Origin: Myxococcales bacterium
GTDB lineage: Bacteria > Myxococcota_A > UBA9160 > UBA4427
NCBI GenBank assembly: GCA_022563535.1
Contig: JADFNE010000019.1
Location: 3,386-67,385, forward strand
Length of the DNA stretch: 64,000 nucleotides
Direction of reading: 5' to 3'
A model generated the notes under the pieces. The model ran no database searches and had not been told where the DNA came from. It saw only the letters and a program-made list of their open reading frames with translations. Positions 2,909-55,464 of the stretch are shown here, in pieces (the first letter of the stretch is position 1; each line of letters begins with the position of its first letter). The translations under genes were made by a program, and so were the position numbers.

Positions 2909-4540
2909 ATGGAACTGACGGCGGAGCGCTTCAAAGGGTTGCTGCTCCAAATAGTGGGGGAGTGCGATCTCGACACCTTGCTTCGGGTGATCGTGAGCGA
3001 ACTCGCCGACGAGAGCGATGTCGCCCTGGCTCGGATCTGGCTCATCAGGCCGGGGGACATTTGTGCCAGCTGCCCGAGGCGCGACGATTGCCCCCAACAC
3101 ACCGCGTGCCTGCATCTGGTTGCCAGTGGCGGAACACCTCTGAATGCGACGACCCCAGCCGGCGAAACCCTTGACTGGACCCGCACCAACGGGAACTTCC
3201 GCCGCTTCCCCCTGGGCGTTCGCAAGATTGGGCGCGTCGGCACAGGAGAAACTGTTCGTATCGAAACAATCGAAGGCAACGAAGCTTGGCTCGCCGATCC
3301 CGAATGGGCGACCCGAGAGCAGATCCGCGGTTTCGGAGGCGTCCCCCTGACCTATTCCGGTGAAGTCCTGGGCTGTCTCGGCGTCTTCACCAGAAGCGAT
3401 TTTTGCGAGGACACTCTCGAATGGATGCGGATCGTCGCCGATCATGCGGCGGCCGCCATTGCCAACGCAAGGGCCTTCCAGGAGATCGAAAGTTTGCGCG
3501 GCGAACTCGCGCTCGAGAATGAGTATCTCCGCGAGGAGGTGAGCGAAGCGAAGTCATTGGGTGCGATCGTCGGCACCAGCGCATCGCTTGCCAGCGTTCT
3601 CCAGCGCATCGCATTGGTCGCACCCACTGACGCGACCGTACTGATTCAAGGAGAGTCGGGGACCGGCAAGGAACTCGTCGCTCGCGAGATCCACCGTCTC
3701 AGTGAGCGCGCCGAACGACCGCTGATCCAGGTGAACTGCGCCGCCATTTCGCGCGAACTCTACGAAAGCGAATTCTTCGGTCACGCTCGCGGCGCCTTTA
3801 CCGGGGCAACTCGTGAGAGAGCCGGGCGCTTTGCCGCGGCCCATGGTGGAACACTCTTCCTGGACGAAGTAGGAGAGATCCCACTCGACTTGCAGGGCAA
3901 GCTTCTCCGAGTGCTCCAGGAGGGAAGCTATGAACGTGTGGGTGAAGAGCAGACCCGAGAGGTGGACGTTCGCATCGTGGCTGCGACCAACCGAGATCTG
4001 CGCGCCGAAGTGGCAGCGGGGCGCTTTCGCGAGGATCTCTACTACCGGCTCGATGTGTTTCCAATTGAAGTTGCACCATTGCGCGAACGCCGCGAAGACA
4101 TCAGTGCGCTGGCGGACCACTTTATCGCCCGGACGGCGCGTCGACTCGGACGGCGCGTTCCAAGACTCGACGGGAAGAGCTACGCGGCACTGCGGGGCTA
4201 CGACTGGCCGGGCAACGTTCGCGAACTTCAGAACGTGCTCGAGCGGGCGATCATCACATGGCGCGGCGGGCCGCTGCGAGTCGATCTAAAACTGTCATCG
4301 GCAACACGTACAAGCGGTCAAAAAGTGTCGTCGTCAACAAGTGATGCCGATCGGGTCGGCGAGTCGCCGATCCTCACCGATCTCGAATTGCGAGACCGCG
4401 AGCGCGAAAACATCGAAGCCGCACTTCGTCGCACCCGCTGGAAAATTGCGGGGCCGGGCGGGGCCGCGGAGTTGATTGGGGTCCGACCTTCGACTCTCGC
4501 CTCACGCATCAAGAAGTTGGGGGTGGAGCGCCCAATCTGA
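2909..4540 (+). CDS. Sigma-54-dependent transcriptional activator with an N-terminal GAF domain
   Basis: 543 aa. It has Walker [24 protein letters not shown] (intact GAFTGA loop), Walker [12 protein letters not shown] and GNVRELQN, plus a C-terminal Fis-type HTH. The N-terminal ~170 aa are GAF-like and carry a C-x2-C-x5-C-x5-C cluster. Confidence 0.9.
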
Positions 4541-50218: not shown

Positions 50219-51001
50219 CTAAAGTCCCGGCAGCGACGTAGTATTGCGATAGGCCGCTCCGGCCTGAATGACCGGCTGGAACGGAAACAAGATCTGCTGC
50301 AAGACATAACCAATCCGCGCCAGGATTGTCGGCGGCACCACGACAATGTCTCCGCTGAGCAGTTGAATATTGCTCGAAAGATCCCCCGATTGGATTCGAC
50401 TCAAATTCACTTGGAGGATCACCGGCTCGCAATGTAACCAGCATTGTGCGGGGTCTCGTGCAGCTCGAATCACCCGGACGTTGCGCTTTGACGCGAAGTT
50501 GGTCGTGCCGCCCAATTGTGCGATGGCTTCTGCCACCCGAATGTCGTGCTGGATGGGAAAGGTGCCCGGACTGCGGACTTCGCCGAATAACGTGATGGTG
50601 TCGCTCTCGGCTGCAATTACGGTCACGGTGACCGAAGCGTTGCGCTTGAAGCGGCCGATCTCCACCCGCACGGATTCGGCGATCTCCTCGGGCGTCATGC
50701 CCGCTGCCTGGAGATCACCAATCAAGTCCAGAGACACCTTGCCGTCCGGACGTACGGTCACAACTCGTTCGATCACGGGCTCGGGCAGAATGCTGATCAA
50801 GATCTGGTCGGGGGCGCCCACTCGATAGGGCACCGGTTTTGCCATCAAGGGCGGTGCGGCTGGCGAAACGCAGGCGATCGGGCCGAGCAGCGAAAGACCC
50901 ACCGCGACCAAGAGCAGCGCAAGCGGCGCCGTCCTCCGCTTTTCATGCTGTGCCTGATTCGCAAATTGAATTGGATTGGAGTGCACGGTTGATCCCCCCA
51001 C
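50219..51001 (-). CDS. Polysaccharide export outer-membrane lipoprotein (Wza-like: Poly_export plus SLBB)
   Basis: A lipobox is present (LLGPIAC). YRVGAPDQILISI and VRPDGKVSLDLIGDLQAAGMTPEEIAESV match the export-protein pattern. The start may instead be GTG 50986, which follows GGGGGGA. Confidence 0.85.
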   Translation of the reverse strand: MGGSTVHSNPIQFANQAQHEKRRTAPLALLLVAVGLSLLGPIACVSPAAPPLMAKPVPYRVGAPDQILISILPEPVIERVVTVRPDGKVSLDLIGDLQAAGMTPEEIAESVRVEIGRFKRNASVTVTVIAAESDTITLFGEVRSPGTFPIQHDIRVAEAIAQLGGTTNFASKRNVRVIRAARDPAQCWLHCEPVILQVNLSRIQSGDLSSNIQLLSGDIVVVPPTILARIGYVLQQILFPFQPVIQAGAAYRNTTSLPGL

Positions 51002-51007
51002 GCGTTC

Positions 51008-51062
51008 TTCGGGTGTTGTTCGGGTGTTGTTCGGGTGTTGTTCGGGTGTTGTAGTTCGGGTG
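51008..51062. repeat. Tandem direct repeat, 11-bp unit TTCGGGTGTTG x4 plus a partial fifth copy
   Basis: Perfect copies lie at 51008-18, 51019-29, 51030-40 and 51041-51. TAG then precedes TTCGGGTG (51055-62). The array fills the gap between the FHA-gene stop (51107) and the Wza-like start. Confidence 0.9.
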
Positions 51063-51106: not shown

Positions 51107-51451
51107 TCAGCTGGAACTCGGGGACCCAAAATCGAAACGAAACGAAGTACTGCCGATCTTGATCTCGTCCCCCGGCACGAGGGTTGCCGAGCGCACGCGC
51201 TTGCCGTTGAGCTTGGTTCCATTGGTCGACTGAAGATCTTCGACCACGTATTCGCCGTGGTCACCGGCGGATTCGTCGAAGCTGATGATGGCGTGCTCGC
51301 GGCTGATGCCGTCGTCGAGCAAGGTGATGTCGGTGGTCGGGTTGCGGCCGATCAAGGTTTCTTCGGCAGACAACTCGTACACCATCCCTTTGAAGTCGCC
51401 GGTCAGCGCCACGAGACGACCGGATGCGGGCCGGGAAGACTGATCAGACAT
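51107..51451 (-). CDS. Stand-alone FHA domain protein
   Basis: 114 aa: LIGRNPTTDITLLDDGISREHAIISFD...VEDLQSTNGTKLNGKRV. Confidence 0.85.
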   Translation of the reverse strand: MSDQSSRPASGRLVALTGDFKGMVYELSAEETLIGRNPTTDITLLDDGISREHAIISFDESAGDHGEYVVEDLQSTNGTKLNGKRVRSATLVPGDEIKIGSTSFRFDFGSPSSS

Positions 51452-51538
51452 TGCGCGGCAACCTTTCGGCCTCCGCCCGTCGGGGCAGTGGAGACTCGAT
51501 CCGCTATCGGCATGGCAAGCGAGAAGCTTGAGACGGCG

Positions 51539-52348
51539 CTACAGGCGCCGGTTTGCCAGGCAGGGGACAGACTTCCGGACGCGTTCCAAGTGCGCAAGGT
51601 CACAGTCGGCCAGGATCACCCCGGGTTCGTCGCCCGCCTGCGCGAGCACCAGGCCCCAGGGATCCACGATCATCGAACGTCCGTAGCTAGAACGATCTGC
51701 GCTGTGCTGACCGCATTGGGCCGGGGCCAACACGAAGGCCTGGTTTTCGATTGCCCGGGCGCGCAGCAGCACCTCCCAATGGTCTCGCCCAGTACTGGGT
51801 GCAAACGCCGACGGAACACTGAGAAAACGCGCCCCTTGGGCCACCAGTTCTCGGTACAACTCGGGGAAGCGCAGGTCGTAACAGATGGACATGCCTAGCA
51901 CGCCAAAGGGAAGTTTGGCCGATACCACGTCACTGCCCGGGGCGATCGCATCGGATTCTCGAAAGCTACCGCCGTCGCGAGCCAGGTCGACATCAAACAA
52001 GTGGAGTTTGCGGTAACGCGCAACGCACTCGCCTTCGGGCGAGATCAACACACTGCAGTTGTACACGCGATCGCTGTCGGGGATGCGCTCGGGAAACGAA
52101 CCCCCGAGAATCCAGATGTTCCGTTCTCGAGCCAGTTCGCGAATACAGACGACGATCTCTCCGTCGACGTCCTGGGCGCAGGGGTAGGCCAGCCCTTCCC
52201 GGCGCAGATAGCCGTAGTTCTCGGGCAGGGCGACAAACTCAGCACCCCGGTCGACCGCCTCGCGAACGAAGTGACGCGTGGCTTCGAGATTTGCGGCGAT
52301 ATCGTCGCTCGAACTCAGCTGGATGATGGCGGTGCGAACCACTGACAT
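51539..52348 (-). CDS. Carbon-nitrogen hydrolase (Nit/nitrilase superfamily amidase)
   Basis: The Glu-Lys-Cys triad contexts are present: FVALPENYGY, RYRKLHLFD and MSICYDLRFPE. The ATG at 52348 lies 4 nt after the upstream gene's stop. Confidence 0.85.
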   Translation of the reverse strand: MSVVRTAIIQLSSSDDIAANLEATRHFVREAVDRGAEFVALPENYGYLRREGLAYPCAQDVDGEIVVCIRELARERNIWILGGSFPERIPDSDRVYNCSVLISPEGECVARYRKLHLFDVDLARDGGSFRESDAIAPGSDVVSAKLPFGVLGMSICYDLRFPELYRELVAQGARFLSVPSAFAPSTGRDHWEVLLRARAIENQAFVLAPAQCGQHSADRSSYGRSMIVDPWGLVLAQAGDEPGVILADCDLAHLERVRKSVPCLANRRL

Positions 52349-52352
52349 CAGA

Positions 52353-53402
52353 TCAAGTGCGGAACTCGCTCGGATCAACTCCGGTGCGTCGGATCACGTC
52401 GTAGAAGTCCTTGCGATCCTTCTTGGCCAGCCTCGCCGCACGACTGATATTGCCACTGCAGCGCCGCAGCAATCCCTCGACGTAGCGAGTTTCGAAGGCC
52501 CGCTTCGCATCCTTGAAGGAGGGCACTTCGTCGCCGTCGGTCGCGAGCATCAGCGATTCTGCGGAGATCACCCCGCCGCTGTTGAGTCGCACGGACTGTC
52601 GGATGCGTTCGCGCAACTCGCGCACGTTACCGGCCCAAGTTTCCTCGACCAGCCAGTTGCGCGCGTCGGAGGTGAAACCGATCGGCCGAATCTCTTCGGC
52701 TTCCGCCACCTCTGCCAGGAAGTGTGCGGCCAATGGCAGCACGTCCTCGCGTCGCTCGGAAAGCCCATCGAGGCTGACCACCTCAGTGGGCAGGTCACCA
52801 AGAAGCTTCTGTTCCGTGTGTCCATCGGAACTATCGGCGGTTGCGATGATGCGCACGGCCAACCGAGTCGGTTCACTCTGACCGGGCCGAATGAACGACT
52901 GAGACTGTGCGGCTTGAATCACCGCGGTGCGCAGCGACGGCTCCAATTTGTCGAACCCGGCGATCAGCAGCGTGCCCTGTCGCGCAGTGAAGAGCGCACC
53001 GTCGGTATTTTCGCCGAGGGGAGCCGCAGCGTCCGCGCTGCCGAACAATTCGCGCTCATGAAGGCCGATGGGCGTACTCGCCGCCGGAAACACGATAAAG
53101 GGCTGTCCCGCCCGGGTGCTCCACGCGTGAATCGCGCGACCGAAATGTTGGCGTCCACTGCCACTTGGTCCGACGATCAAGATCGCACTGTCGCCCCGGG
53201 CGCAGGCAGTCGCCTGGTCCAGGGAACGTTGGGCACTTTCGCTGGCGGCGACGATTCGATCGCTCTGCCGGCGGCCGATGACCCGAGTCGCCGTTGCGCC
53301 CGTGTCCGTACCAGGCGTTGCGCCATGCGGGCTCTCCGCCGCTTCTGCCGTCGTTGCCCCTGCGGTCGGAGTTGTGATCGATGTCGTTCGTTGATCGTTC
53401 AT
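52353..53402 (-). CDS. Sigma-54-activator-like AAA+/Fis-HTH regulator with degenerate ATPase and sigma-54-contact motifs
   Basis: It has the EBP layout and signatures (GNVRELRERI; C-terminal HTH ISRAARLAKKDRKDFYDVIRRTG). However, Walker A is GPSGSGRQ (Lys to Arg), Walker B is LLIAGFDKL (no DE), and no GAFTGA loop is present. The N-terminal ~45 aa are a Thr-rich low-complexity tail. Confidence 0.8.
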   Translation of the reverse strand: MNDQRTTSITTPTAGATTAEAAESPHGATPGTDTGATATRVIGRRQSDRIVAASESAQRSLDQATACARGDSAILIVGPSGSGRQHFGRAIHAWSTRAGQPFIVFPAASTPIGLHERELFGSADAAAPLGENTDGALFTARQGTLLIAGFDKLEPSLRTAVIQAAQSQSFIRPGQSEPTRLAVRIIATADSSDGHTEQKLLGDLPTEVVSLDGLSERREDVLPLAAHFLAEVAEAEEIRPIGFTSDARNWLVEETWAGNVRELRERIRQSVRLNSGGVISAESLMLATDGDEVPSFKDAKRAFETRYVEGLLRRCSGNISRAARLAKKDRKDFYDVIRRTGVDPSEFRT

Positions 53403-53625
53403 GCGTGATGCCCCCAGACGTTATCCGCGTGAAAACCAGAACCATTGATGTTTCACGTCATTGTCAAACACTCTTGCGAATGCATTGCATAATCTCTCGC
53501 AAATGAACCAGACGTGTTCCAGAAAACATTGACTCACCAACGCGGCCATGTTAACCCGCAAGAGGGGAAATGTGGGCAGCGAATTCACACCATTTTTTAA
53601 TTTTCGGCAATTAATCGGAGTTAAC

Positions 53626-55464
53626 ATGGAAAATGAGAAGGGTCGCATTCAGCTCCTTTCCAATGCCGTGATCGACCAGATCGCTGCCGGGGAAGTTGTC
53701 GAGCGTCCCGCGTCGGTGGTCAAGGAGCTGGTCGAGAACGCACTGGACGCCGGCGCAACGCGAATTCGGGTGGATGTACGGGATGGGGGCCGCGGTCTGG
53801 TCGCAGTCACCGATGACGGATACGGCATGTCCCCAGGGGAAGCCCGGATGGCGCTGGCCCGTCACGCCACCAGCAAGCTCACGAGTATTTCCGATCTCGA
53901 AAATGTCACCAGCTTTGGATTCCGGGGCGAGGCCATGCCCGCAATCGCTTCGGTTTCGAAGATGAGGTTGTTTACCCGGCCACACGATCACGACGAGGGA
54001 TACGCGATCAATCTCGAGGGCGGTGAAATTCTCTCCGAAGGGCAGGCGGGTGGACCGGCCGGGACCCGGGTCGAAGTCGCCGAACTGTTTGCCAAGATTC
54101 CCGCGCGCCGCAAGTTTCTCAAGAGCGAAGGCACCGAGTGGGGACACATCGCCGATTGGATGCGGAGGTTGGCCCTGGTTCTGCCCGGGGTACATTTTGA
54201 ACTGCGACGAGATGATCGTGCGGCCATCGTCTGGCCAGCGACCTCGAATCCCCTGGATCGTATTGCCGCCGTGCTCGGAGAAGCCGAAGCCGCGGCGCTG
54301 GTCGAAGTCGAGTGCGAAGAGGGGACGGGGCATCTACACGCTTTCATCTCCACGCCCGAGAACACCCGGGCCAACGCGAACGCCATCTACCTGTTCGTCA
54401 ACGGACGCCCGGTTCGCGACAAAGTCATGCGCCACGCACTGCTCCAAGCCCATCGCGACATCTTGCCCAAGGGCCGCTTTCCGTCGGCGATTCTCTTTTT
54501 GACCCTGCGCGGATCCGGTCTGGACGTCAACGTGCACCCGGCGAAGTGGGAAGTCCGCTTTGCAGAGCCCCAGGCTGTTCACCAACTGATTCGCCGCGCG
54601 GTGCGCGACGCAATGGTGCAGCGAGGTTGGTTGGGAGACGGGGTCGCAACGCAAACCACTGAGGCGCTGACTCCGGGACTGAATCGAGGGACGCGCAAGC
54701 TCGCAGCCGGAGCCTCCTGGGTTCGAGATCGCAGCGGGAGCGACTGGGCCCTCGCGGGCCCCAGCGCTGACAGCGCGCCTGGTTCGGTCGCGCTCCCGGG
54801 GCTCGACGTCCCATCGAGTGAACCGGAAACGTCCGCGATTCAGTTCGGCAGCTTGCGCCTGCTGGGTCAACTGCTGGCCAGCTACTTGCTGGTGGAGGGC
54901 AAGGAGGGTTTGCTGCTCGTCGACCAACACGCTGCCCACGAACGCGTTCTCTATGAGCGCCTGCGCGCGGAGTGGCTCGACCGGGGAGTCGAACGCCAGG
55001 GCTTGTTGCTCGCGGTCAACGTCGAACTCGACCCGCTGGATGCTGCGGCCCTCGGCGAACACAGCGAAATCGTCGAACGTCTGGGCTTCGAGATCGAACC
55101 CTTTGGCGAAGGGGCAATGGTTGTGCGATCGACCCCATCGCTACTCGGCGACCGGGATCCGGCAAAGCTCCTGCGCGACCTGGCGGCAGAACTGCAGGAC
55201 ATCCCCTCCGTTCAGGACGACCCTGCAGACCGGACAACGACGTCTCCCGCCGACACCCGCCTGCTCGGAGCCGCGGATCGCGTGTTCGCCAGCCTCGCCT
55301 GCCACAGTGCCAGAAGGGCGGGAGATCATCTCGAACCCGACGAGCAACAGCAGATCTTGAACGATCTGGACACGATCCCCTGGGCTCCCACTTGCCCCCA
55401 CGGACGCCCGGTTGCCGTCGCCTATTCGCTGCCCGAAATCGAGCGAAGATTCGCCCGTCGTTAG
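53626..55464 (+). CDS. mutL: DNA mismatch repair protein MutL
   Basis: ATG 53626 follows GGAG. IQLLSNAVIDQIAAGEVVERPASVVKELVENALDAGA is the GHKL N-terminus, and a C-terminal dimerisation domain is present. Confidence 0.95.
   Translation: MENEKGRIQLLSNAVIDQIAAGEVVERPASVVKELVENALDAGATRIRVDVRDGGRGLVAVTDDGYGMSPGEARMALARHATSKLTSISDLENVTSFGFRGEAMPAIASVSKMRLFTRPHDHDEGYAINLEGGEILSEGQAGGPAGTRVEVAELFAKIPARRKFLKSEGTEWGHIADWMRRLALVLPGVHFELRRDDRAAIVWPATSNPLDRIAAVLGEAEAAALVEVECEEGTGHLHAFISTPENTRANANAIYLFVNGRPVRDKVMRHALLQAHRDILPKGRFPSAILFLTLRGSGLDVNVHPAKWEVRFAEPQAVHQLIRRAVRDAMVQRGWLGDGVATQTTEALTPGLNRGTRKLAAGASWVRDRSGSDWALAGPSADSAPGSVALPGLDVPSSEPETSAIQFGSLRLLGQLLASYLLVEGKEGLLLVDQHAAHERVLYERLRAEWLDRGVERQGLLLAVNVELDPLDAAALGEHSEIVERLGFEIEPFGEGAMVVRSTPSLLGDRDPAKLLRDLAAELQDIPSVQDDPADRTTTSPADTRLLGAADRVFASLACHSARRAGDHLEPDEQQQILNDLDTIPWAPTCPHGRPVAVAYSLPEIERRFARR

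Follow-up and report, generated by a model that had tools for sequence, protein, structure and literature searches.

A sensor-less and degenerate family of enhancer-binding proteins in one class of uncultured Myxococcota

The stretch of DNA considered here, 64,000 nucleotides of contig JADFNE010000019.1 from the assembly GCA_022563535.1 of a Myxococcales bacterium (positions 3,386 to 67,385, called the window below), encodes on its minus strand a protein designated REG, which resembles the enhancer-binding proteins (EBPs), the AAA+ activators of sigma-54. REG belongs to a family confined to one class of uncultured Myxococcota and is read here as a sensor-less form among the atypical EBPs. The explanation favoured here, held with moderate confidence, is that REG is an atypical, lineage-specific derivative of the EBPs, working independently of ATP hydrolysis and of sigma-54 at promoters of the housekeeping sigma factor, that its conserved neighbours are not obligate partners, and that the nearby gene for a stand-alone FHA protein is a separate unit. 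No published description of this family, or of the regulator-amidase-FHA arrangement, was found in a literature search.

According to this explanation, the AAA+ fold and its lid would have been kept as an oligomerisation or scaffold domain. The protein would bind DNA through an almost invariant Fis-type helix-turn-helix (HTH) and would serve as an activator or a repressor of housekeeping-sigma promoters, without ATP hydrolysis or sigma-54, in the manner of NtrX, VpsR and TyrR. Since REG has no folded sensor, its input must reach it by way of its disordered Ser/Thr-rich tail, from a partner acting in trans, or from a ligand bound in the degenerate pocket. The gene would be transcribed from its own TTGACA-type promoter, probably together with a Nit-family amidase gene, and the FHA gene would be transcribed separately from a FliA/sigma-28-type promoter, alongside chemotaxis and type IV pilus genes. 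The fold, the losses of motifs, the distribution of the family, the synteny with its exceptions and the promoter motifs are observed directly. For this locus we infer independence from sigma-54 in vivo, action at sigma-A promoters, the operon structure and the sigma-28 dependence of the FHA gene.

Fold, motif losses and family of REG

An initial annotation of the window, made from the sequence alone, had recognised in the 349-residue protein the AAA+ and Fis-type HTH layout of an EBP, and Pfam, alignments to PDB sequences and fold matches all agree with it. REG is matched by Sigma54_activat (PF00158, 7.4e-22, 78 bits) and AAA_lid_14 (PF25601, 3.4e-16, 59 bits), and by all the NCBIfam equivalogs for EBPs, each far below its cut-off. 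None of the Pfam HTH families passes an E-value of 0.01 on REG; its C-terminus nevertheless aligns to the HTH of NtrX and ZraR. The AlphaFold model, built with 79 homologs, has a mean predicted local distance difference test (pLDDT) score of 86, with about 95 in the core and in the HTH helices (residues 296-347) and less than 50 for residues 1-38. Its best PDB matches are the Brucella NtrX structures with ATP or ADP (5m7p/5m7n, E 6e-22), followed by NtrC1, FlrC, ZraR, FleQ, PspF and VpsR. No N-terminal sensor was found: only 42 residues precede the AAA+ domain, without a Pfam match and with pLDDT below 50.

The catalytic and sigma-54-contacting motifs were called from residue-by-residue HMMER alignments to the PDB sequences of ZraR, NtrX and NtrC1 (Table 1). 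The segment ELFGSADAAAPLGENTDG of REG aligns opposite ELFGHEKGAFTGADKRREG, so that the GAFTGA loop is absent and ADAAAPLG occupies its position. Arginine replaces the lysine of Walker A (GPSGSGRQ). At Walker B, GTLLIAGFDKL is aligned to GTLFLDEIGDI, and LLIAG is read where hhhhDE is expected; the acidic pair is indeed gone, as first proposed, although the tetrapeptide FDKL then pointed to lies just past the true Walker B position. The arginine-finger segment (FRxDLyyRL) is shortened to EQKLLGDLPTEV, which contains no arginine, and Sensor II (GNVRELRE) is retained. The alignments brought to light no misread catalytic residue and confirm the losses. Moreover, among 200 distinct members of the family a GAFTGA-like loop is found in none, the canonical DE of Walker B in three, and the Walker A position is Arg in 132 and Lys in 67. 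The recurrence of the ortholog and of its losses in these relatives means that the losses are not due to chance. On the basis of these three counts REG can very probably neither hydrolyse ATP nor make contact with sigma-54, in line with the first reading, which had expected neither hydrolysis nor remodelling of sigma-54.

The family is narrow in its distribution. A clear, single-copy ortholog is present in 38 of the 40 genomes of the order (E 1e-75 to 1e-156), well separated from the paralogous EBPs, which score at about 1e-35. Among 301 sampled genomes of the phylum, most of those that belong to the same order have an ortholog, as do 10/10 of the sister order (38-46% identity); outside the class this sample gave only two borderline matches, at 30-31% identity, and the remainder had no match. 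Relatives confirmed on contigs of public genomes number 183, and all 80 of the loci listed among them come from uncultured metagenome-assembled genomes labelled Myxococcota, Myxococcales or Deltaproteobacteria, a few of them mislabelled. Databases name these proteins 'sigma-54-dependent Fis family regulator' or 'GlrR'.

Comparison of the branches reveals a stepwise decay. In the sister order the helix on which the arginine fingers normally sit survives, as does the lysine, the latter within a broken P-loop, GEEGVEKD. Within the order to which the window belongs, some branches retain GSGKE with DD or DE, and the branch of the window itself has lost every one of these motifs. Because some lineages keep the arginine-finger helix, GSGKE and DE or DD and none keeps GAFTGA, the coupling to sigma-54 was lost first and ATPase catalysis afterwards.

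The opposite end of the protein has a different history. The HTH sequence recurs unchanged in 113 of 120 homologs whose overall identity is only about 55%, and it is nearly the same in the sister order. Across 79 REG sequences 59 columns are invariant, mostly within residues 295-344. The DNA-binding end is, judging from this pattern, under purifying selection, as would be expected for a DNA-binding job, possibly at many sites. The idea that REG might be a relic or a pseudogene was rejected on the strength of the conservation of this C-terminal third.

Where this conservation lies also bears on a highly improbable alternative, in which the dead AAA+ domain would enter mixed rings with one of the approximately 17 canonical EBPs of the cell, as a dominant-negative or modulating subunit tuning sigma-54 transcription, with parallels in HrpR/HrpS and FleQ/FleT. 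REG has indeed kept the AAA+ fold and the surfaces that form oligomers while losing catalysis; the genome yields 18 EBP-like matches and uses sigma-54 promoters, for example at flagellin genes. However, the most conserved part of the protein is the HTH and not the ring interfaces, REG adjoins no other EBP, and in this order the missing arginine-finger helix alters the face between subunits.

What is left of the nucleotide pocket is relevant to another alternative, considered unlikely: that REG is a ligand-switched regulator of polysaccharide or biofilm genes like VpsR, FleQ and EpsI/Nla24. Its pocket, or its basic RRRSDR patch, would bind a nucleotide second messenger, such as cyclic di-GMP (c-di-GMP), or ATP without hydrolysis, and the ligand would switch DNA binding or the contact with RNA polymerase at nearby exopolysaccharide (EPS) genes. 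VpsR itself, an atypical EBP, depends on c-di-GMP for its action at a sigma-70 promoter (PMC6158489), and the fold matches include both VpsR and FleQ. The P-loop glycines G78, G81 and G83 are invariant in the family, the sensor II Arg and an Arg-rich patch at the entry of the AAA+ domain are conserved, and a polysaccharide export gene and a priming sugar transferase gene lie downstream in many loci. Nevertheless, the different degeneration of the P-loop in the sister order (GEEGVEKD) and the high variability of Walker B argue against a conserved nucleotide pocket. The EPS genes are inconstant neighbours, and they remain beside a locus, L129, from which REG is missing. A comparison with the c-di-GMP-binding residues of FleQ gave no clear match and was not used.

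The first reading had also described a Thr-rich tail in place of a sensor domain, and this description stands: 12 Thr were counted within residues 1-43 of the translation, in a region that is disordered in the model. The length of the tail ranges from 0 to 81 amino acids in 120 database proteins as called, and from about 10 to 90 when the starts are re-derived from the loci, in which case every ortholog carries an N-terminal extension. Ser, Thr, Ala and Gly are enriched in these tails (T 12.7% and S 13.7%, vs 4.6% and 7.9% in the core). The tails cannot be aligned between subclades, each of which begins with a short motif peculiar to it: MxEQRTTS, MSEQHSxLGxxRVExTTxDR (also given as RVE(T/S)TTxDR), MSEIGVQREGS or MTDTQDINS. 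The TT and TTS motifs resemble the ETTS phosphosite of GarA/OdhI, a resemblance that is a lead only. All tails end in a conserved junction, (D/E)RxxGRRRSDRIV, in which, over 79 sequences, R49 is invariant, conservation reaches 90% or more at G43, R44, R45 and D48, and the Ser varies (S/E/G/N).

Table 1. Features of the REG locus, with positions counted from the first nucleotide of the window
Feature	Position	Strand	Basis or remark
REG, sensor-less degenerate bEBP-like regulator, 349 aa: disordered tail, AAA+ sigma-54-activator fold, lid, Fis-type HTH	52353..53402	minus	Pfam, PDB alignments, AlphaFold
REG N-terminal tail, residues 1-42, disordered, variable in length and sequence among orthologs	53277..53402	minus	pLDDT <50 for residues 1-38
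Basic motif G-R-R-(R/Q)-S-D-R-I-V joining tail to AAA+ domain, residues 43-51	53250..53276	minus	conservation in 79 sequences
Degenerate Walker A GPSGSGRQ, Lys to Arg	53148..53171	minus	aligned to G(D/E)SG(T/V)GKE of ZraR, NtrC1, NtrX
L1-loop region at the GAFTGA position, ELFGSADAAAPLGENTDGAL	52992..53051	minus	alignment; 0/200 family members GAFTGA-like
Degenerate Walker B GTLLIAGFD, DE to AG	52950..52976	minus	GTLLIAGFDKL aligned to GTLFLDEIGDI
Fis-type HTH GNISRAARLAKKDRKDFYDVIRR, nearly invariant in family	52386..52454	minus	identical in 113/120 homologs
Predicted REG promoter: CGCAA-N6-TTGACA (-35), 17-nt spacer, -10-like hexamer TGGTTC	53439..53478	minus	conserved in orthologous intergenic regions
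Shine-Dalgarno-like CTGGGGGC, 8 nt upstream of REG ATG	53410..53417	minus	fixed position in relatives
Nit-branch C-N hydrolase, 269 aa from ATG 52348	51539..52348	minus	PF00795 3.9e-62
Predicted sigma-28 (FliA)-type promoter TCAAG-N15-GCCGATA (TCAAG-N15-GCCGATAG)	51505..51531	minus	53 nt upstream of FHA start codon
Stand-alone FHA-domain protein, 114 aa, pThr-binding residues intact	51107..51451	minus	PF00498 1.4e-20 (74 bits)
Polysaccharide export protein (Poly_export + SLBB)	50219..51001	minus	Pfam

The promoter of REG and the search for its sites

The promoters proposed here for REG, the FHA gene and the export gene were assigned on the basis of consensus and conservation. For REG, TTGACA occurs in 79 of 88 orthologous REG-mutL intergenic regions, vs about 6 in shuffles, and it is fixed at -65 from the ATG. 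The -10-like box, TGGTTC in the window, reads TAGATT, TAGTTT or TACTTC in relatives, and a GGGGG Shine-Dalgarno follows downstream of it. REG is predicted from these features to be transcribed from its own housekeeping, sigma-A-type promoter. The conservation of promoter and Shine-Dalgarno at a fixed distance in relatives speaks for the ATG at 53402 as the start in use, so that the tail would be translated.

An operator search over the REG-mutL intergenic regions of the 88 loci returned only the promoter parts, the Shine-Dalgarno, the context of the start codon and a CCGCAA element. The composite CGCAA-N6-TTGACA occurs once in the genome and, on account of this single occurrence, defines no regulon. 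A search for a sigma-54 (-24/-12) promoter by the REG locus, confined to its neighbourhood, found none; the conserved motifs there are of the TTGACA type and TCAAG-N15-GCCGATA. One candidate -24 box, CATGGCAC, which is enriched (21 of the 88 regions), turned out to be GTGCC-ATG, that is, start-codon context.

The CCGCAA element (53474-53478 in the window, and the orthologous loci) lies 6 nt upstream of the -35 of REG and is conserved across the order. Some loci contain an inverted copy, TTGCGG, 3-50 nt further upstream at variable spacing; the window has TTGCGA-N17-TCGCAA at 53475-53510. Read together with the -35, CCGCAA gives CAA-N6-TTG, a candidate autoregulatory site. This sequence over REG's own -35 resembles the CAA-N2-5-TTG sites of NtrX (PMC9223101), a likeness too short to be evidence.

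Alignments of mutL orthologs start near residue 26-34 of the longest open reading frame, for which reason the start of mutL is probably the ATG at 53627 (MENEKGRIQ...) rather than 53548 (region 53548-53625). The divergent intergenic region would then measure about 220 bp. On the plus strand, a TTGACG-type -35 for mutL is present in relatives.

Neighbouring genes and the question of a module

REG is the first of four co-oriented genes on the minus strand, the others encoding a Nit-family C-N hydrolase, the FHA protein and a Poly_export/SLBB protein; mutL-miaA-(orf154)-der is transcribed divergently from this group. As the initial annotation had noted, the ATG of the hydrolase (52348) lies 4 nt past the TGA of REG (52355-52353), and the two genes are probably co-transcribed in this genome, as their spacing suggests. 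The FHA gene, again as first described, is the second gene downstream of REG, the next after the hydrolase, from which an 87-nt gap separates it.

The hydrolase is assigned by its sequence to the Nit branch of the nitrilase superfamily. Its nearest NCBIfam model, in the comparison with the Nit1/YbeM enzymes, is the deaminated-glutathione amidase NF043013 (212 bits vs a cut-off of 500), and NF033621 gives 157 vs 355; the columns of the Glu-Lys-Cys triad are conserved in 91 orthologs. The FHA protein, in which about 15 residues precede the domain, scores best in NCBIfam with FhaB/FipA (70 bits, cut-off 125) and OdhI (NF041660, 52 bits, cut-off 200), and its pThr-binding residues GR, SREH and NG are conserved in 82 orthologs.

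From this arrangement the initial annotation had derived a dedicated module, which is judged here to be quite unlikely: a Ser/Thr kinase, here taken to be of the Hanks type, would phosphorylate the Thr-rich tail, the FHA protein would dock on it, and the complex would control the neighbouring polysaccharide export and priming genes. Several facts speak for such a model, namely the retention of every pThr-binding residue in the 82 FHA orthologs, the family-wide enrichment of Ser and Thr in tails whose subclade motifs contain TT or TTS, the presence of nine Hanks kinases in the genome, and the frequent proximity of the FHA gene, often followed by the export gene. Synteny and its exceptions were counted over approximately 90 loci, with denominators restricted to those loci that have room for the gene concerned.

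The hydrolase gene is downstream of REG and on the same strand in 84/85 loci (within 300 nt in 72), and in 73/77 the FHA gene lies no more than about 1.5 kb from REG (68 on the same strand, 5 inverted). The proposed triad is syntenic elsewhere too, a point that the initial annotation had asked to have checked. However, mutL is divergent from REG in 76/77 loci, and miaA, orf154 and der also keep their places, even in the sister order. The whole housekeeping block mutL-miaA-der being equally syntenic, gene order here is largely inherited regardless of function and is no sign of a module. In 12 loci a pgi-like (glucose-6-phosphate-isomerase-like) gene, at times on the opposite strand, or several unrelated genes stand between REG and the hydrolase. 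The pgi-like insertion, recognised by eye from the motifs GIGGSSLG and ATDQHSQ, was seen in L114-L116, L120, L023, L029 and L121, accompanied in L029 and L121 by further unrelated genes.

The gene losses are informative as well. The FHA gene is missing from the locus in four REG-bearing genomes, in which the best other FHA protein is 32-41% identical vs 50-70% for orthologs, the orthology of such short proteins being judged by these identity gaps; REG and its tail are retained in all four. A fifth REG-bearing genome, a streamlined one, contains no FHA match at all. Reciprocally, REG is cleanly absent from the two genomes of f10, a family of the order (L128 = G096 and L129 = G033, 94% and 99% complete), where the hydrolase and the FHA ortholog stand directly beside mutL on the same contig. 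Because each gene persists without the other, an obligate partnership between REG and the FHA protein is ruled out.

The FHA gene also seems to have a promoter of its own. The consensus of FliA/sigma-28 is TAAAGTTT-N11-GCCGATAA (PMC7286023, PMC4866697), a promoter of this kind being expected to have a TAAA(G)-like -35 and a GCCGATAA -10, about 14-15 nt apart; the element upstream of the FHA gene, TCAAG-N15-GCCGATAG, matches it. This element was detected in 42/82 orthologous upstream regions with a relaxed pattern and in 30/82 with a strict one, vs 0.1 and 0 in shuffles, and many of the remaining regions contain one-base variants (GCCGATT, GCCGATC), seen by eye and not tallied. The element is kept in loci with an inverted FHA gene and in the REG-less loci of f10, one of which has a one-base variant. 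A FliA/WhiG sigma factor is encoded in the genome (TIGR02479, 282 bits vs a cut-off of 190). Genome-wide the motif has 11 sites, vs 0-4 in shuffles, and TCAAG-N14-16-GCCGATA also precedes genes for a methyl-accepting chemotaxis protein, a CheY-like receiver, a PilT-like ATPase, a type IV pilin, an HD_5 protein and a PPP-type metallophosphatase (C12:71455, C31:108372, C88:22607, C108:5980, C126:77897, C98:64938). In this myxobacterium pili and chemotaxis seem to fall within the sigma-28 regulon, and the FHA gene is most simply read as a separate sigma-28-type transcription unit grouped with motility and chemotaxis genes.

The genome has at least six flagellins besides FliA, whose gene is at C130:4853-5530, with an EBP paralog (C130:3338-4336) just upstream of it. 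Five of the flagellin genes (C139:8955, C74:47441, C74:34964, C31:78203 and C90:3926) have sigma-54-type promoters, TGGCAT/C-N5-TTGCA, and not sigma-28 ones.

Taken together, these observations weigh against docking on a phosphorylated tail as an obligate mechanism. The FHA ortholog has been lost from five genomes that keep REG, with the tail still present in four of them, and f10 has lost REG yet keeps the hydrolase, the FHA gene and its sigma-28-type promoter. A promoter of its own precedes the FHA gene, which stands inverted in 5 loci; some orthologs have a tail of no more than about 10 residues; neither kinase nor phosphatase is linked to the locus, none of the nine Pkinase (Hanks) genes being on this contig. 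The export gene, for its part, has a promoter-like element of its own, at which no REG-type operator was found. The notion of a dedicated module with FHA docking and EPS control is not supported, in view of the reciprocal losses, the promoter of the FHA gene, the lack of a linked kinase and the variable tails. A facultative contact between a phosphorylated tail and the FHA protein is possible but very doubtful. The amidase and FHA genes are, as far as gene order and gene content tell, conserved neighbours of REG and neither its obligate partners nor parts of a dedicated module.

The export gene follows the FHA gene in about 60% of the loci, a frequent but inconstant neighbour, and in relatives its promoter-like element reads TTGCGC-N17-CCGATAGCGT. 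In the window it is preceded, at 51008-51062, by an array of four 11-bp repeats without mismatch (CAACACCCGAA on the coding strand). They were considered as a site for REG and discarded, being absent even from the closest relatives; at the corresponding place, locus L049 carries another tandem repeat. The array appears to be lineage-specific and possibly unstable, and no conserved operator.

Known systems, remaining doubts and significance

Among characterized proteins, NtrX of Brucella abortus and Sinorhizobium meliloti comes closest. It is the best structural match of REG and the second-best PDB sequence match (about 28% identity), and it shares with REG an EBP-type AAA+ fold without GAFTGA and a Fis-type HTH. 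NtrX acts without sigma-54 and binds CAA-N(2-5)-TTG dyads, often as a repressor (PMC9223101, PMC6158489). It differs from REG in possessing a receiver domain that accepts phosphate, with NtrY as the cognate kinase, where REG has only a disordered tail. REG, moreover, goes further in lacking the lysine of Walker A, the acidic pair of Walker B and the segment of the arginine fingers, and it is found only in one uncultured class of Myxococcota whereas NtrX is alphaproteobacterial. Other atypical EBPs acting at sigma-70 promoters are VpsR, TyrR, PhhR, HupR and HsfA of Myxococcus xanthus, listed with NtrX (PMC6158489), and NtrC of Rhodobacter and Caulobacter also belongs to this class (bioRxiv 10.1101/2023.06.06.543975). 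Like REG, these proteins have no GAFTGA and often have non-consensus Walker motifs (PMC6158489; bioRxiv 10.1101/2023.06.06.543975). Unlike REG, they possess a folded N-terminal sensor (REC or ACT/PAS), and several still need to bind ATP. The combination of tail, AAA+ domain and HTH has been reported for none of the atypical EBPs compared. PexR (PMC12754779), also considered as a relative, is a canonical GAF-EBP and is unrelated.

In layout and size REG is closer to PspF and HrpR/HrpS, which likewise consist of AAA+ domain and HTH without a sensor, and PspF matches REG at 1e-18. PspF is, however, an active ATPase with GAFTGA that drives the sigma-54 promoter beside its own gene and has its inhibitor, PspA, encoded alongside, none of which holds for REG. 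The only candidate for a partner of the PspF type alongside REG is the FHA protein, which is lost or kept independently of it. The small FHA proteins of Actinobacteria, GarA/OdhI and FhaB/FipA, resemble the 114-residue protein in being little more than an FHA domain with intact pThr residues. The latter differs by scores far below the cut-offs, by the absence of an N-terminal ETTS-type tail and of a membrane segment, and by a predicted sigma-28-type promoter common to chemotaxis and pilus genes. Jelsbak, Givskov and Kaiser reportedly described in 2005 sigma-54 activators of M. xanthus with FHA domains, linking Ser/Thr-kinase signalling, FHA domains and EBPs. In those activators the FHA domain is said to be fused as a sensor to an EBP that is active and has GAFTGA. 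At the REG locus, in contrast, it forms a protein by itself, probably transcribed separately, and REG is catalytically dead.

Several points weigh against the explanation favoured here. The search for operators, to begin with, yielded no target site or regulon of REG. About a third of the family members keep the Walker A Lys, and the conserved P-loop glycines and sensor II Arg suggest that binding of a nucleotide or of another phosphate ligand may still matter, so that a role as scaffold only may be too strong a statement. The closeness of the hydrolase gene in 72/85 loci, and of the FHA gene in 73/77, may reflect a looser functional tie. Finally, the sigma-28 assignment of the FHA promoter is based on similarity to the consensus and on the kinds of genes downstream of such sites, while flagellin genes carry sigma-54-type promoters.

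A broader scheme, considered improbable, would unite several of these elements: REG would be a class-wide global regulator, with the dead AAA+ ring as an assembly platform only and the HTH at many sites; Ser/Thr phosphorylation of short linear motifs in the tail would set its activity and would be read by the sigma-28-controlled FHA protein when present. If true, it would couple the motility state to a housekeeping-sigma regulon.

Atypical EBPs have been viewed as links between sigma-54 and sigma-70 regulation (PMC6158489). The few that have been studied all possess sensor domains, and the REG family, as the favoured explanation has it, adds a sensor-less form to them. The reciprocal gene losses and the different promoter types make the three genes of the arrangement separable, which serves as a warning that deep synteny in a narrow lineage need not mean a functional module. 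The genomes of f10 are natural knock-outs of REG and as such useful for comparative regulon finding. The approximately 200 natural variants of REG constitute a graded series, in which GAFTGA is gone from all, the motifs of Walker A and Walker B and the arginine fingers disappear step by step in different branches, and the DNA-binding end hardly changes. This series shows which parts of an AAA+ activator stay useful once its motor is gone.

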